A stretch of DNA of 64,000 nt, taken from IMG/VR virus record IMGVR_UViG_2609460125_000009; one strand, 5' to 3'. A model generated the notes under the pieces. It was not told the DNA's origin and ran no database searches. It was given only the letters and a program-made list of their open reading frames with translations. Of this stretch, positions 1,434-57,147 are shown piece by piece (the stretch's first letter is position 1; the number at the start of each line of letters is the position of its first letter). A program made the translations under genes and the position numbers. The DNA is from a virus. Lineage: Duplodnaviria; Heunggongvirae; Uroviricota; Caudoviricetes.

Positions 1434-1564
1434 AGTGTATAAGCGGATCAATGAGTTACGGAAACAGTTAATAATGAGGAGCTTGTAATAAGCTGTATAC
1501 CCTAGAAAAGCTAGACTAGGGAATAAAATGACGTGAAACTGGGCGAGACAGTAAATAATTCCGA

Positions 1565-2794
1565 ATGATAATTGAACAAATAACCCCTTGCTCGGAGCTT
1601 GGAATGACTGATACCGCTTTTTCAAAATCGTTACAAAAAGAAGTCGATCCTGAGCAGTACTTGGCGCTAAAGAATTTAGATGACAGCTCGGTTCATGCTA
1701 TTGCCCGTGACGATATCATCTGCCCCATTTGCAAAGTTGGAGGTGGTTCGTTCGTTAGAGCCACTAGGAATGGTGGCTATCACAAGAAGGCGCATTTCAG
1801 ATTTACCGGTGAAGATGGTCAAGGCCATCATCCATCATGTGATTTCTATGGAGATAGACTAACATCTGAGGTGAAGCAGCACCTTGTCTCATTCACAAAA
1901 GATCGAACAAAGTATTCGCAGGTAATACGAAAGCTGGTCTGTGCCGGCATACAGGAAGGGATATTTACTCAAGAAAAAATGTGGCAGATGAGGGAATGGT
2001 TCTTCAATAAGCGAAAGGATTCCACATTTGAAATATGGTTAGAAAGCGAGCATTTAGACTGGCTTTATTATATTAGTGGGTTACGTGATGCATATCTAGC
2101 ATGGACAACTCCTGATATTCTACCTTTCGCGCCCATTCAGGTTACTGTGCCTGGTTTTTCTTGGAAGCGTGCGATTGACAAAGAGGTGCTAAGAGTTCAC
2201 ATCAAGACTCTCCAGCAATTGCGTGAAATTTCAGTCTCACATAGAGACATTGCTGTAATCTTAGAACACATAAACAATAATCGTGACCGCACAATTCTCG
2301 ATCCATCGCATTTGGAGGACGAGATAAGTAAGACCTATAAGCTTACTAGTTTTGTGATGGGCAATTACATTGAGTTTCAGACAAAAACGGTTAGCGACAG
2401 AGCATACGGGGAAGCTAAGTTTCTGGCATTTGCAGCACTTTTGTTGTTCGTGTCAGATTGGGACCTCAACATTGCTATTGGTAAGTTTTCTAAGATTGCC
2501 AGAGTGAAGGAGGTTGATGACATGCTGGCTGGTAATTTCATTGGTCTTAATCCTTACTTCCGATACGACCTGGCTAATGCAGTGAAGAGATTGCAGGATA
2601 ACTGGCCGATTGAATACCAAGAGTTGGAGCATTGGAATGTTGAGAAATCCATGCGTGACGCATATGAAAAGTGGCGTGCGACAGAGCCTGAATTCGCTCC
2701 ACCCCTATTGCCAGACTTGTATATTGCCAAACATGAGAAAGAAGTCGCACAAGACGAGCAAGTCAGGCAGTGGATTAAGAACGGGGATGTTTGA
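1565..2794 (+). CDS. hypothetical protein with N-terminal zinc-ribbon-like Cys/His cluster
   Basis: 409-aa ORF; CPICK…HHPSCDFYG motif; start uncertain (ATG 1604 has a better RBS). Confidence 0.5.
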   Translation: MIIEQITPCSELGMTDTAFSKSLQKEVDPEQYLALKNLDDSSVHAIARDDIICPICKVGGGSFVRATRNGGYHKKAHFRFTGEDGQGHHPSCDFYGDRLTSEVKQHLVSFTKDRTKYSQVIRKLVCAGIQEGIFTQEKMWQMREWFFNKRKDSTFEIWLESEHLDWLYYISGLRDAYLAWTTPDILPFAPIQVTVPGFSWKRAIDKEVLRVHIKTLQQLREISVSHRDIAVILEHINNNRDRTILDPSHLEDEISKTYKLTSFVMGNYIEFQTKTVSDRAYGEAKFLAFAALLLFVSDWDLNIAIGKFSKIARVKEVDDMLAGNFIGLNPYFRYDLANAVKRLQDNWPIEYQELEHWNVEKSMRDAYEKWRATEPEFAPPLLPDLYIAKHEKEVAQDEQVRQWIKNGDV

Positions 2795-2849
2795 GTGTAA
2801 TTAGCTTAATCAATCAGTTGATAATGGCGGTCACAATTTGATTCTTTTC

Positions 2850-3720
2850 TATAAGAATCCGTTGATCGCCACTACTCTTCTTCCATACCTGCAATCACAC
2901 CTTTAAATATCAATAAGTTATAGTTGTTTATACAATCAAGAAAACAACTGAATAACAGATCAACGAAACATCAACGCTTTCACCCGATTTGGTCTAAAAA
3001 ATTGACGTATTCACACATCACTTCTTATACCCGTAATTCTACGCAGCAGACAGCGCCACAGCGTCCAATTTTCACCACAGACGACCCAACACACTACCAA
3101 CAAAAACACACGCTCAAAATCGCTCCCGTTGCGTTACACAACCATATAAACAACTTATTTTCAGGCATAACAAAACAACTAAATAACACACATGCCATTC
3201 CCCAAAACAACCAACCTCTTTATGGCAGGCTACCGAAAAGACCCACCTCTTCTCCCCAGGCTACCGGACAACCAACCTAACTTTCACAGGCAATCCGAAA
3301 ACATTCATACGCGCGATACCCACGACACGCCATTACCCAAACAGCGAAGAAACACCAGAATCACTGAAACCCCAACGAAGCCTGTAACCGCAAGGTTTCT
3401 CTCAATCCCAAAAGACACGAAACATAACAATCACGGGAAACGCCATTACCCAATACACGAATAACTACAAAAGCCTTTCACACACTCCAGACAAACAACT
3501 CAAACACAATAACGAAAGGAATCGCCCACCTGCCATTACTCCATACACGGAGAAGAACAATCACCAAAACGACGAGAACACCCCATAGAAGAACCACCGC
3601 AAAACGAACGAAACCACATACACCGACAGAGAGAACAACACACCCAATTCACAAACAGAAATAGTCGCCGCATAGAACGTTCTGGAAGGGGTGAGCATTA
3701 ACGCCTATAGAGAGGTTGAG
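2850..3720 (+). other. strongly A+C-skewed non-coding region with degenerate direct repeats
   Basis: G and T are scarce on the given strand; no ORF >=60 aa on the opposite strand; repeated GCCATTACCCAA and CAGGCTACCG units. Confidence 0.6.
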
Positions 3721-44937: not shown

Positions 44938-45189
44938 ATGCTAGGCAGCCTGATGACAAAGCTAAAAGTTGCTTTGATTACGCTGGCTGCCGTTCTTTTC
45001 GTTCTTGTCGGCGCTTACACGATGGGCGGAAATGCGGCGCGACGAGCAATGGAAGAGAAGGCAAAACAGGAAGACAGAAAACGACTTCAAAACACAGTGA
45101 AAGTGGTGAATGAGACGAGCAGTAAAATACGTCAGAAAGATGCTTCTGCCGTTCATCGTGAGTTGTATGATAAGTGGGTGCGTCATTAA
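44938..45189 (+). CDS. i-spanin (Rz-like)
   Basis: N-terminal transmembrane segment followed by a charged coiled-coil. Confidence 0.6.
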   Translation: MLGSLMTKLKVALITLAAVLFVLVGAYTMGGNAARRAMEEKAKQEDRKRLQNTVKVVNETSSKIRQKDASAVHRELYDKWVRH

Positions 45190-45325
45190 ACCACAAACAG
45201 CCAGCGTGTTGTTCTGCGATGGGGCTGAGCCTATCTATATCAGCAATAATGATGTAATGACTGAAGAAACCGAACGCCAAATCCTTTTTCACAATACGAT
45301 GGGAGAGAGGGTTTGTGGTTGGTGA
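45140..45325 (+). CDS. o-spanin (Rz1-like lipoprotein), overlapping the i-spanin gene in another frame
   Basis: Signal peptide with lipobox ISGC; begins inside the i-spanin gene and extends beyond it. Confidence 0.55.
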   Translation: MLLPFIVSCMISGCVIKPQTASVLFCDGAEPIYISNNDVMTEETERQILFHNTMGERVCGW

Positions 45326-45357
45326 TGTCGAAGTTCCCCTCAAATGAGGGGAACACA

Positions 45358-45879
45358 TTATTCTTCGAACAATTTTTCGATAGATTTTGTAGGATAGAAC
45401 AAAGAACGCTCGTTGTTACCAACCAGCTGGATAAAGCCTAAACTTTTATAAAACGCCTTGGCTTTGTCATTTAACGCCTCAACGAAAAGTCCATGAATGC
45501 CTACAGCAAGAGATGCATTGTACACAACGCGCATTGCATGTGTTACAAGCATTGAGCCAAATCCTTGACCTTGAAGGGACTTGTCCAAAGCCAGCCTACC
45601 CAAAGTAACACTTGGAACATTCCGATAAGGAACCTTCTTTTGTTTGCTTCTTGAAGGTAAGGACTCCTTTTCAAAACAACTACCTGACAAAGTGTAATAT
45701 CCTAACACTTTTGGCCTTTCTTCTTGAGTGCAAAGCACATAAGCACGAAGAATTTTTCCCTCATGCTGCCTTTTTAAGTGGTTGGCTAAAAAGGCGTTTA
45801 GTGACTCTTCGCCGCAATCAAAACCGTTTAGATCATAATCTTTCTCTCCAGAGAAAATCTCTATCGTTGTATTGCTCAC
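45358..45879 (-). CDS. GNAT-family acetyltransferase toxin (TacT/KacT/AtaT-like)
   Basis: GNAT motif QGQGFGSMLV; directly downstream of an RHH antitoxin-like gene. Confidence 0.7.
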   Translation of the reverse strand: MSNTTIEIFSGEKDYDLNGFDCGEESLNAFLANHLKRQHEGKILRAYVLCTQEERPKVLGYYTLSGSCFEKESLPSRSKQKKVPYRNVPSVTLGRLALDKSLQGQGFGSMLVTHAMRVVYNASLAVGIHGLFVEALNDKAKAFYKSLGFIQLVGNNERSLFYPTKSIEKLFEE

Positions 45880-45886
45880 GAGTAAA

Positions 45887-46156
45887 CTACTCCATGCTTT
45901 TCAGACGATCAGCAGCTCGTTTCAGCTTGTCGTTCGGTGCCGGAGGATTGCTTATAGCGTCCATAACCAGATTCCAGGATTCTTCATTCAGAACTAGTCT
46001 ACGGTGTTGCTCTATAACTTTCACGGCACGTTCAGATGCACTGCTAACCATAAACTGAGTAATGCTCTGGTTAGACATTGCGGCAGCTTCCTCGATGATG
46101 CTTTTATCGTCATCGGTTAATCTCAAATCGATGCGCTGCTTTTTTAGTGCTGACAT
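45887..46156 (-). CDS. RHH antitoxin (DUF1778-like)
   Basis: Small ORF with AGGAGG RBS; 8-bp gap to the toxin gene. Confidence 0.6.
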   Translation of the reverse strand: MSALKKQRIDLRLTDDDKSIIEEAAAMSNQSITQFMVSSASERAVKVIEQHRRLVLNEESWNLVMDAISNPPAPNDKLKRAADRLKSME

Positions 46157-46424
46157 GTATTCCTCCTGATGGCCGTGATGTAGGAAGGCCATCAATCTCC
46201 TCTGTTCAAACTGAGTTTTCGACTCAAAAATTACTTTAAAAGGCTATAGCCCATTACGTGTGCATTATCAAATTGTGTACGGCATAACACCGTACTTGTA
46301 ATATAGAGGTCATTGTTACTTTTTTCAACAGACAAATACAAGCTATGATTGCCAATTGTTAATCACAACCTACCATTTAACCTTTACACCGCAGCCGTAG
46401 GCATTTAGGCTATATCACATATAA

Positions 46425-46440
46425 GAAAACAAGTTGTTTC
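46425..46440. promoter_or_regulatory. motif family 1 site GAAAACAAGTTGTTTC
   Basis: Palindrome ~35 bp upstream of the ParA gene. Confidence 0.5.
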
Positions 46441-46474
46441 AGACGATAATTATATACGCAAAGGGAACTCTCCA

Positions 46475-47143
46475 ATGACCAAGATCTTTGTGGTTGGCGG
46501 CACAAAGGGCGGGCCTGGCAAATCCACCCTTGCCCAGCAAATTGCCGTTTGCCTTAAAGTCAAAAAGAAGAAGAAGGTTTATATCACTGATATAGATATT
46601 CAGCGCACGACAACAAGCTGGTGTGAAGACCGTCGACAGAACGAAGACCTTGAGCTGATTCCTTTTGCATACGTTCAGGATGACATCATTAAGCACCTAA
46701 AATCGCTTCAGGGTAGAGCTGAGTATGTAGTGGTAGATGCTGGTGGCTTCGACTCCGAAATTCAGCGACAAGCGATGCTGATGGCTGACGTTATCATTAT
46801 CCCGCTGCGTCCTAAGCGTCGTGATTTGAAATCTTTACGTGACATCGATCCTATTATCGACAATGTTCGCAATGTAAACGATAAAGTGAAGGTCCGCGCG
46901 GTCATGAACCAGTGCCCGGCTTTGCCATCACAAGTGTCTCGCATTCTGGCGGCTAAAGAGATTGTTGAGACGTTTGGAATCGAGTCTGCGCCAGTCAATC
47001 TGTATAACCGCAACGTCTATGATGATGCGGAAGAGTCTGGTCGTTCTATCTTTGAAATGACCGGTAGCGAGCGCGACAAAAAGGCGGAAGCCGAGTTTGA
47101 AGAATTTGTAGATTATCTGTTGAGTCTGGAGGAAGAAGAATAA
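46475..47143 (+). CDS. ParA-family partition ATPase
   Basis: Deviant Walker A GGTKGGPGKST. Confidence 0.8.
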   Translation: MTKIFVVGGTKGGPGKSTLAQQIAVCLKVKKKKKVYITDIDIQRTTTSWCEDRRQNEDLELIPFAYVQDDIIKHLKSLQGRAEYVVVDAGGFDSEIQRQAMLMADVIIIPLRPKRRDLKSLRDIDPIIDNVRNVNDKVKVRAVMNQCPALPSQVSRILAAKEIVETFGIESAPVNLYNRNVYDDAEESGRSIFEMTGSERDKKAEAEFEEFVDYLLSLEEEE

Positions 47144-47502
47144 TGTCCATGAAAATGGGTGACCTAGCAAAGCGCAAAGAGCCTGATGCACCGGCTAAGA
47201 ACACAACTCCTTTGCGCCAACCAGTCAGACCACAGGGACGCCCGACTCGTGGCAAAGAGAAAATTAAAAGCCGCACAATGTCACTGGAGGACGAATACTT
47301 CGAACTGCTGGAGATGATGAAGTTCATCCCTCGCTTCGAGAAGTTCACTCGTTCTGACGTGATTCGAGCAGCCATTTTCCATCTGGCAGAGAAGTCACCG
47401 CAGGAAATCGAGGACATCGTGAAATTGAATGAGGCGATCACCGCTGCCGATGTCACGATGCGTACCGATGAAATCAAACGAGAGTTGATGAAGAAAGGTT
47501 AA
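47143..47502 (+). CDS. partition adaptor / centromere-binding protein (ParG-like RHH, putative)
   Basis: Small ORF translationally coupled to ParA (TAATG); basic disordered N-terminus. Confidence 0.5.
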   Translation: MSMKMGDLAKRKEPDAPAKNTTPLRQPVRPQGRPTRGKEKIKSRTMSLEDEYFELLEMMKFIPRFEKFTRSDVIRAAIFHLAEKSPQEIEDIVKLNEAITAADVTMRTDEIKRELMKKG

Positions 47503-47554: not shown

Positions 47555-48322
47555 TTATGCCGCGCTAACACTATGTTCAGTCCTAACCACCCCAACCTTC
47601 ACAAAAGGGCTACCGTAGCTTGGTGGCTTCTTGATTAATTTGCCTACATACAGTTTTCTAATATGCTCATCGGCTATTCTGCCAACAAATTCATAACGTT
47701 TTGTGTCGGGGCCAAGAGCTATATCCCTTGTAAAGTACTGCTGAGAACCGGCTTTGACCCAGCATTCAATCTGATAAACTTCCATTATCAGCCCACCATA
47801 TGTAGCGTAGGCATATTTGAGATTCTCGTCTCTTGGAACCTTTGCCCATACGCCACGCGTAGCTTCATATAATGCCAGAGCGGACATTCCTGACTTGTAG
47901 GTGCTGTTTAGCAGGAAGGCAAGACCGGCGTGCTCAGGAGCAATTTCAGTTTCCTCTTGCAGCACTAAGTGATGGTAGGCGTCCAGTGATATTCTGCCCA
48001 TCATGGAACCACTTCCTCGTACCTTATTCGTAAGCTCTCCGACCCCCATAAGGTCGATGCATGTCGCCTCAACAAGTTTGGCTGTGGTTTCATCCATACC
48101 ATGACGAAGTATATCTATGCCTAATTTTTTATTAGCCAAAAGTTCTTTGATCCGCATGGATTTGGGAGAGTCATCGGGATACTTGATGTGATCGAGACAA
48201 CGAGTCGATTTGCCTTTTCCTATGTAAAACGGTCTTTTCATCTTGTCTTCTGTATCATAGAGACAGTAAACATAGTATTTAGCCTTATCCAATGATCTCG
48301 CGTATACCGATAAATCGTCCAT
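47555..48322 (-). CDS. GIY-YIG nuclease domain protein
   Basis: N-terminal YVYCLYD…FYIGKGK…R…H motif; C-terminal domain unassigned. Confidence 0.55.
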   Translation of the reverse strand: MDDLSVYARSLDKAKYYVYCLYDTEDKMKRPFYIGKGKSTRCLDHIKYPDDSPKSMRIKELLANKKLGIDILRHGMDETTAKLVEATCIDLMGVGELTNKVRGSGSMMGRISLDAYHHLVLQEETEIAPEHAGLAFLLNSTYKSGMSALALYEATRGVWAKVPRDENLKYAYATYGGLIMEVYQIECWVKAGSQQYFTRDIALGPDTKRYEFVGRIADEHIRKLYVGKLIKKPPSYGSPFVKVGVVRTEHSVSAA

Positions 48323-56294: not shown

Positions 56295-56369
56295 GATGGT
56301 GTAGCTCAGCGGTAGAGCAGTTGGCTGTTAACCAACTGGTCGGTGGTTCGAATCCACCCACCATCGCCA
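56295..56369 (+). tRNA. tRNA-Asn (anticodon GTT)
   Basis: Hand-folded cloverleaf: acceptor GATGGTG/CACCATC, anticodon loop CTGTTAA, T-loop TTCGAAT, 3' CCA encoded. Confidence 0.8.
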
Positions 56370-56374
56370 ATTTA

Positions 56375-56461
56375 GGGGAGTTAGTCCGTAGAGGTAGCGG
56401 GGTAGACTGTAAATCTACTGTCATTGCGACTCGGGTGGTTCGACTCCATCACTCCCCACCA
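56375..56461 (+). tRNA. tRNA-Tyr (anticodon GTA), long variable arm
   Basis: Acceptor GGGGAGT/ACTCCCC, anticodon stem-loop GTAGA-CTGTAAA-TCTAC, long variable arm; D-arm pairing is atypical. Confidence 0.6.
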
Positions 56462-56465
56462 AATT

Positions 56466-56541
56466 GCCGGTTTAGCTCAGTTGGTAGAGCGCCTGCCTTG
56501 TAAGCAGGATGTCAGCGGTTCGATCCCGTTAACCGGCACCA
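56466..56541 (+). tRNA. tRNA-Thr (anticodon TGT)
   Basis: Acceptor GCCGGTT/AACCGGC, D-arm GCTC-AGTTGGTA-GAGC, anticodon loop CTTGTAA, T-loop TTCGATC. Confidence 0.8.
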
Positions 56542-56904
56542 ACACAACAGGTAAGAGCATTGGGCGAATCGGCGATACTGACCCACAAGCCCGTAAATCG
56601 ATAGAGTCAGACCAGTGCTCTTACCGTTGTGAGGAAGTGCAGCTCTTTGAAGCAACCAGAAGATAAGCATCTGGCTTCACAACACAACGATAAGATCATT
56701 ACGGTTAATCGTCGTTCATGTGCACAATGACTGGTCGAAAGGTAGTGATCTTACCGTTGTGGTGGATTCGCAGACTGATGCGATAGCTTTCTTGGATGTT
56801 AGGGAAATGCGGCCGCAAATCTTCCCTTTCGCGAGCGGTGATCGTCCGTAGTCCTAATTGGCTGCACCGTATGCCGGAGATTCAGTACCGGCCACCACAA
56901 CGGC

Positions 56905-56991
56905 CGGAGAGTAGGGAGCATGGTGCTCAAGCGGTCTTGAAAACCGTCCCATTGCGCAAGCGATGATGGTTCGATTCCATTACTCTCCGCC
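56905..56991 (+). tRNA. tRNA-Ser (anticodon TGA), long variable arm
   Basis: Acceptor GGAGAGT/ACTCTCC, anticodon loop CTTGAAA, T-loop TTCGATT; D-arm atypical. Confidence 0.55.
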
Positions 56992-57147
56992 AGACACAGC
57001 GTTGAGCGGTTTGGCCTTTTAATCACCCAGATTAAGACTCCGCTAACATAAACCAGACCGCTCAACGCTGTGATAGACAATTACGGCAGACGTTCTTAAC
57101 CATAGCTTGCTAACATCCTAGCAACACTTTTTTTCAGCGCAAAATTC

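Follow-up and report, generated by a model that had tools for sequence, protein, structure and literature searches.

The window considered here, that is, the whole 64,000-nucleotide stretch of the Caudoviricetes record IMGVR_UViG_2609460125_000009 (IMG/VR) that was analyzed, carries a putative toxin-antitoxin (TA) gene pair, and we describe this pair, its control region, and the exchangeable slot in which it lies. In the list of open reading frames (ORFs), two adjoining frames span positions 45358–46156 exactly, the antitoxin gene coming first (45887–46156, ATG start, 89 amino acids) and the toxin gene following it (45358–45879, GTG start, 173 amino acids). An initial annotation made from the letters alone had drawn the same limits, to which we add the correction that both genes are on the minus strand. 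Read directly on that strand, the junction is ...ATG GAG TAG TTTACTC GTG AGC..., with a 7-nt spacer, TTTACTC (45880–45886), between the antitoxin stop TAG and the toxin start GTG; the 8-bp spacing first given for the pair is the difference between coordinates. With the antitoxin first, a short spacer, and a common strand, the two genes are laid out as a bicistronic operon.

The upstream product, earlier described as a small ribbon-helix-helix (RHH)-like protein, indeed belongs to such a family, as it matches Pfam PF08681 (TacA1/DUF1778) with an E-value of 5.7e-26. In phmmer comparisons with PDB chains it aligns over its full length and without gaps to KacA (5zgn_A, E = 6.6e-42) and to AtaR (6ajm_C, E = 1.3e-40), with global identities of 80.5% and 76.1%, respectively, and we assign it as an AtaR/KacA orthologue of the DUF1778/TacA family, with a ribbon-helix-helix at its N-terminus and, at its C-terminus, a region that binds the toxin. 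Operator binding by KacA requires R8 and R12, with a contribution from D10, and M65/I68/Q70 and R77 touch the toxin (PMC6698736). The protein encoded in the window keeps R8, D10, R12, M65, and I68, and at positions 70 and 77 it carries the N and K of AtaR.

We place the start of the antitoxin at ATG 46156, as in RefSeq, because the alternative upstream extension is unconserved and the alignments to KacA and AtaR begin at residue 1. This ATG is preceded at a distance of 5 nt by a Shine-Dalgarno sequence, AGGAGG (46162–46167, minus strand). The alternative, a 102-amino-acid antitoxin beginning at TTG 46195 and recorded as CYRAN_27 in the entry for Escherichia phage Cyrano, was rejected, as its 13 additional codons are not conserved among the alleles of related plasmids: upstream of the ATG, the allele of E. 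coli YPE3 has a stop one codon before, and that of E. coli GS04 lacks an alternative start.

The downstream product scores above the gathering scores of four GNAT Pfam families, and its closest PDB chains are those of two GNAT toxins, AtaT (6gts, 6ajm, 6ajn, and 7chd; E = 1.4e-79) and KacT (5zgn_C and 5xun; E = 3.9e-75), with gap-free, full-length alignments running from residue 1 to 172. More distant matches are TacT-type chains (E from 1e-11 to 1e-21) and ItaT (7byy, 5e-4). At 69.8% global identity to AtaT, we assign the protein as an AtaT/KacT orthologue. The Q-x-x-G-x-G motif that the initial annotation had picked out is there as QGQGFG (residues 103–108), the acetyl-CoA motif with G108 included, and the gap-free AtaT alignment likewise shows that the catalytic tyrosine Y144 is kept.

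Mutations that lower AtaT toxicity have been mapped to G108, Y144, F30, H34/R37/R40, R71, S76, K77, S78, K79, K81, K82, Y85, and R95, where G108 serves acetyl-CoA binding, Y144 serves catalysis, and the S76–K82 set forms the acceptor-stem helix, with the single change G108D removing toxicity (PMC7595197). Since the letters of 6gts agree with this published numbering at 15 of 15 positions, the chain is confirmed as AtaT. Identity holds at 12 of the 15 tested residues (F30, H34, R37, S76, S78, K79, K81, K82, Y85, R95, G108, and Y144), two differ by conservative swaps (R71K and K77R), and one by a non-conservative swap (R40E). Restricted to the acceptor-stem contact set of the clade, 10 of 12 residues are identical, K77R being conservative and R40E the single non-conservative change. 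As sequence matches, the domain assignments of both proteins are well outside chance. The ratio of nonsynonymous to synonymous substitution rates (dN/dS) between the window and the allele of E. coli GS04 is 0.054 for the toxin (dS 0.49) and 0.039 for the antitoxin (dS 0.25), and values near 0.05 in both therefore indicate strong purifying selection on each, the one indirect sign that the toxin would arrest growth and the antitoxin would neutralize it.

Upstream of the antitoxin lie the elements of a predicted control region. The best consensus match in the region to a sigma-70 promoter (10 of 12 positions, a consensus match only) lies at 46300–46328 on the minus strand, with a predicted -35 hexamer TTGAAA (46328–46323), a 17-nt spacer, and a predicted -10 hexamer TATATT (46305–46300). 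Beginning 5 nt downstream of this -10 hexamer is a perfect palindrome, GTACGG-N7-CCGTAC (46277–46295, N7 being TGTTATG on the minus strand), which we take as the probable operator and which, by its position, would cover the expected transcription start. It was first spotted by eye, its 6-nt arms being below the minimum of 8 (seed 6) of the repeat finder, and a pattern search allowing one mismatch returned a single occurrence in the window against 0.06 expected. The 27-bp operator crystallized with KacA4KacT2, AAATGTACGGTTATTAACCGTACATGA, has been reported to lie across the start of kacAT transcription (PMC6698736), and the half-sites and 7-nt spacing of the putative operator are those found in it. 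Across four diverged alleles (those of E. coli GS04, Enterobacter, Citrobacter, and E. coli YPE3, with toxins 61–94% identical to that of the window), the half-sites are invariant and the spacer is variable, which is, at the level of sequence, the pattern expected of an RHH operator.

Between promoter and antitoxin runs a leader of about 137 nt that ends in a stem-loop abutting the Shine-Dalgarno sequence (stem-loop and Shine-Dalgarno together 46162–46194, minus strand; arms 46167–46174 and 46187–46194, inverted repeat I8), for which RNAfold gives -13.1 kcal/mol. A hairpin stands at the equivalent place in 5 of 5 alleles (-11 to -14 kcal/mol), with stem sequences that differ. An Rfam scan of 45000–46600 at E <= 1 returned three sub-threshold chance matches only (a group II intron fragment, a miRNA, and a snoRNA), and the leader is therefore without a known RNA element; the hairpin might influence how stable the mRNA is or how its translation is controlled. 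At the other end of the operon, the terminator scan marked a GC-rich hairpin (45333–45354), placed between position 45325, where the convergent gene for the Rz1 spanin ends, and the toxin stop codon at 45358. For the lysis operon on the plus strand this hairpin resembles a terminator; for the minus strand it has a weak T-tract.

Taken together, we interpret the two genes as very probably forming a GNAT/DUF1778 (RHH) type II TA module of the AtaRT/KacAT clade. The architecture of aminoacyl-tRNA-acetylating systems that had been proposed at the outset is well borne out by homology, given identities of 70–80% to the characterized AtaRT and KacAT proteins, the retention of key residues, and a KacAT-type operator.

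The phage-plasmid setting suggested for the pair was upheld as well, since the window matches SSU5-like phage-plasmids along its length and at both of its ends. Identity at the locus is 99.9% with Escherichia phage Cyrano (OV696614; pLF82 of strain LF82 is this same element) and 100% with pPEC178_2. The gene order in Cyrano is tail fiber, holin, endolysin, Rz, Rz1, toxin, antitoxin, ParA, helicase, and primase, so named in that order, and the pair thus adjoins parA directly, with transcription of the two running in divergent directions. Cyrano has been described as a virion-producing, SSU5-like phage-plasmid with a copy number of about 5.5 per cell, and CYRAN_26 and CYRAN_27 are transcribed in LF82 lysogens at 35- and 60-fold over local background (PMC9928086). 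The Cyrano record labels the two products “KacT Acetyltransferase-type toxin” and “putative antitoxin”; the pair is accordingly not new, being already annotated in public records and published (listed in PMC9928086), and our literature search found no functional study of the pLF82 pair.

The allele is confined to plasmids in the genomes that we surveyed. Of 5426 complete E. coli genomes, it was detected in 152, plasmid-borne and in single copy in all 152, and at megablast level this query found no AtaRT on E. coli chromosomes. In PLSDB it occurs on 145 plasmids, of which 131 are non-mobilizable and nearly all measure about 106–120 kb.

To delimit the unit that carries the pair, we compared the region by blastn with seven related loci, of which L003 (Shigella sonnei p38), L004 (S. 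Typhi pHCM2), L006 (a Klebsiella plasmid), L008 (Citrobacter), and L009 (E. coli YPE3) define the limits, the others being L005 (Enterobacter) and L007 (E. coli GS04). Left-flank homology stops at 45307–45322 wherever the cassette is replaced, and the right flank resumes at 46368–46374 wherever homology breaks, which delimits a replaceable cassette of about 1 kb (45323–46367), located between the lysis genes and parA and holding toxin, antitoxin, leader, operator, and promoter. GC content is 0.40–0.43 within the cassette versus 0.48–0.49 in the flanks. A 3.3-kb query running from the endolysin gene to the parA partner matched 737 plasmids, only 139 of them over at least 80% of its length.

Occupants of the slot fall into diverged alleles of the same module and genes of other kinds. 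Diverged GNAT/DUF1778 alleles fill it in L005, L008, and L009, whereas L003 has two genes of 127 and 250 amino acids (1645–2765, plus strand), L004 a single acidic gene of 183 amino acids (1484–2035, minus strand), and L006 genes of 113 and 260 amino acids (2319–3443). None of these unannotated occupants of L003, L004, and L006 gave a Pfam or PADLOC match; they could be uncharacterized TA or defense modules. Because the slot boundaries are fixed, the cassette replaceable, and the GC content lower than in the flanks, we regard the TA operon with its own promoter as accessory cargo, in agreement with the published placement of TA systems in the shell genome of the SSU5 supergroup (PMC7969092). 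An AtaRT/KacAT-type operon traveling as a self-contained phage-plasmid cassette is, in our judgment, the best overall explanation of the locus and a highly likely one.

Allele comparison also showed an uneven distribution of change between the two genes. Relative to the window, the toxin is 94% identical in L007, 63% in L005, and 61% in L008 and L009. Against the latter three alleles the antitoxin is 87% identical, with only 3 residues changed among the 32 of the toxin-binding tail, as compared with 61–63% for the toxin. An antitoxin more conserved than its toxin is the reverse of the usual pattern and suggests possible cross-neutralization between alleles. Another palindrome, TGATTGCCAATTGTTAATCA (46346–46365), stands about 110 bp upstream of parA, at the right-hand limit of the cassette and just short of the point (46368) at which the flank is homologous again; it could represent an operator for par or mark a boundary of recombination.

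As for how the module would work, the homologues allow a fairly detailed proposal. By its 70% identity to AtaT, the toxin would carry out acetyl-CoA-dependent N-alpha-acetylation of aminoacyl-tRNAs and so arrest translation; the substrates of AtaT itself are the Gly, Trp, Tyr, Phe, and initiator Met tRNAs, recognized through acceptor-stem G-C pairs 4–6 (PMC7595197). The C-terminus of the antitoxin would be expected to wrap the toxin and to block both acetyl-CoA binding and dimerization in a T-A2-A2-T heterohexamer, as in homologous complexes, whose RHH domains would in turn repress the operon by binding the palindrome; this repression would probably show conditional cooperativity. Once synthesis stops, the antitoxin would, if it behaves as that of GmvAT, be degraded by Lon, so that cells losing the phage-plasmid would be killed post-segregationally, and the module would complement the adjacent, divergent par system.

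Plasmid addiction through such post-segregational killing, which the initial annotation had named beside abortive infection, may be the main role of the module, a proposal that we hold at about even confidence and by analogy. We favor it because the pair lies next to par, is strictly plasmid-borne, and has a precedent in GmvA-GmvT of the Shigella flexneri plasmid pINV, likewise a pair of GNAT toxin and RHH antitoxin, whose plasmid is large, low in copy number, and equipped with par systems. GmvAT stabilizes pINV by Lon-dependent killing of plasmid-free segregants (PMC6519299) and therefore offers a functional precedent for the role proposed here, the likeness being one of architecture and role, and the host being a virulence plasmid rather than a phage-plasmid.

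A number of points weigh against the proposed module and role. Cyrano has a par system and several copies in each cell (PMC9928086), and the benefit of killing plasmid-free cells is therefore not self-evident; the stabilizing effect of GmvAT, for its part, was seen mainly at 21 °C rather than at 37 °C (PMC6519299). Unrelated genes occupy the same slot in many close phage-plasmids, and the module is therefore dispensable for the element. At the level of the toxin, R40 of AtaT, which is Glu in the window protein, belongs to a patch (H34/R37/R40) whose triple mutation attenuates toxicity, and the protein may therefore differ from AtaT in its affinity for tRNA or its range of substrates; that range does vary among GNAT toxins and is not deducible from sequence.

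The same module may instead serve chiefly in anti-phage defense or in the exclusion of competing elements, which we consider improbable. Here infection would halt host transcription, the labile antitoxin would decay, and the freed toxin would stop translation, such that the infection aborts and the lysogen population is protected. Such a role would suit a swappable cargo slot with fixed boundaries, as is often seen for defense “morons,” and a cassette expressed in lysogeny, and tRNA-targeting toxins are known to serve as immune effectors (PMC11559606, PMC12409363). However, neither protein matches any of the 5027 models of PADLOC-DB 2.0 (E <= 0.01), our literature search gave no report of a GNAT/DUF1778 pair protecting against phage, and the place beside par suits maintenance equally. 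Related to this, the slot may be an arena of rivalry between related phage-plasmids, in which cross-neutralizing “anti-addiction” antitoxins, exclusion, or abortive infection would matter more than simple self-maintenance; we rate this, too, as an outside prospect.

Doubtful to a slightly greater degree is a benefit to the host cell, in which stochastic or stress-induced release of the toxin would yield non-growing, drug- or macrophage-tolerant persisters, as for Salmonella TacT. TacT-type GNAT toxins favor a non-growing state of Salmonella in macrophages (PMC11205521), and the element is present in the macrophage-surviving strain LF82, where the locus is transcribed; yet other adherent-invasive strains persist in macrophages without the Cyrano plasmid (PMC12931692), and the element is spread over E. 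coli of many animal and environmental sources. Finally, the reading in which there is no toxin and a GNAT of housekeeping or metabolic function (similar to RimI, or acetylating polyamines or antibiotics) adjoins a small RHH regulator by chance could draw on generic GNAT matches only in Pfam, a RefSeq name of plain “GNAT family N-acetyltransferase,” and a weak top NCBIfam match to RimI, but it has next to no chance of being correct and is effectively refuted by homology: RimI reaches 27.6 bits versus a cut-off of 86.4, the other equivalogs (MshD, PaiA, MobA, and RelB) fall still further under theirs (overall 16–28 bits versus cut-offs of 86–250, so that the metabolic family assignment raised in the initial annotation as grounds for abandoning the pair was looked for and is absent), the toxin is 70% identical to AtaT over its full length with the toxin-specific tRNA-contact helix S76–K82 retained, and its partner is a DUF1778 antitoxin 76–80% identical to AtaR and KacA.

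Returning to the TA module of the AtaRT/KacAT clade, we compared it with the known systems that it most resembles. AtaR-AtaT of enterohemorrhagic E. coli O157:H7 shares the gene order and the short spacer; its toxin residues G108, Y144, F30, Y85, and R95 and its S76–K82 helix are kept (with K77R within the helix), and its antitoxin has N70 and K77 in common with that of the window. It differs in the three toxin positions that are R40E, R71K, and K77R in the window, and the window pair is phage-plasmid cargo beside par. With KacA-KacT of Klebsiella pneumoniae the pair shares antitoxin R8/D10/R12, M65, and I68 as well as the operator half-sites and their 7-nt spacing over the promoter, whereas the operator spacer is TGTTATG in the window and TTATTAA in KacAT, KacA Q70/R77 is N70/K77 in the window, and host and replicon differ.

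Much more distant than these close relatives are TacA-TacT of Salmonella and ItaT of E. coli, which share the two-domain architecture and the chemistry of the pair but differ in tRNA preference, and the acceptor-stem contacts of S76–K79 lack conservation beyond the AtaT/KacT clade (PMC7595197). For a phage-plasmid setting, one can also look to P1.

The phd-doc pair of phage-plasmid P1 is likewise a type II TA system on a phage-plasmid and an addiction module, a resemblance of analogy only. Doc is a Fic-family kinase acting on EF-Tu, and its proteins and chemistry are unrelated to those of the window pair. Among P1-like phage-plasmids, phd-doc is a persistent gene family (PMC7969092).

Several neighboring features of the window deserve mention. 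Right after parA, with overlapping stop and start, lies a 119-amino-acid ORF (47143–47502, plus strand) that is called a “RelE/ParE putative toxin” in Cyrano and hypothetical in RefSeq; its sole match is a PHROG of unknown function, and its position suggests a centromere-binding partner of ParA rather than a toxin. Just past the par genes is another small variable site (47555–48322), where the window encodes, on the minus strand, a 255-amino-acid ORF corresponding to the LEM-3-like GIY-YIG domain protein of pPEC178_2, and Cyrano has a different, plus-strand ORF.

Two further observations concern tRNA biology. Genes for tRNA-Asn, tRNA-Tyr, tRNA-Thr, and tRNA-Ser lie at 56295–56992, and the Cyrano annotation is without the tRNA-Tyr. 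The acceptor stem of this tRNA-Tyr, GGGGAGU, has A5-U68 where AtaT recognition uses G4G5G6:C67C68C69; among the substrates of AtaT is Tyr-tRNA. A phage tRNA insensitive to the toxin is conceivable, though purely speculative. The window also opens inside a plus-strand gene (1 to about 970) annotated in Cyrano as methionyl-tRNA synthetase (CYRAN_100), a curious presence beside a toxin family first described as acetylating Met-tRNAfMet.

To summarize, the pair is an ordinary representative, annotated before now, of a TA clade that has been characterized thoroughly, and the mildly unusual points are peripheral only, namely the fixed-boundary slot, the conservation of the antitoxin above that of the toxin, and the conserved leader hairpin. 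On homology, the locus can be labeled with confidence as an AtaRT/KacAT-type aminoacyl-tRNA-acetylating TA system, which has little significance beyond annotation; the gains there are an antitoxin start corrected to ATG 46156 and a putative operator added at 46277–46295. The variable slot is a more interesting lead than the pair itself and extends mostly outside this window. For the biology of the element, the pair is a natural candidate for a contributor to SSU5-like phage-plasmid maintenance, and, as these phage-plasmids occur commonly in clinical E. coli and Shigella and are able to carry genes for resistance, work on their stability or curing would be of practical value.

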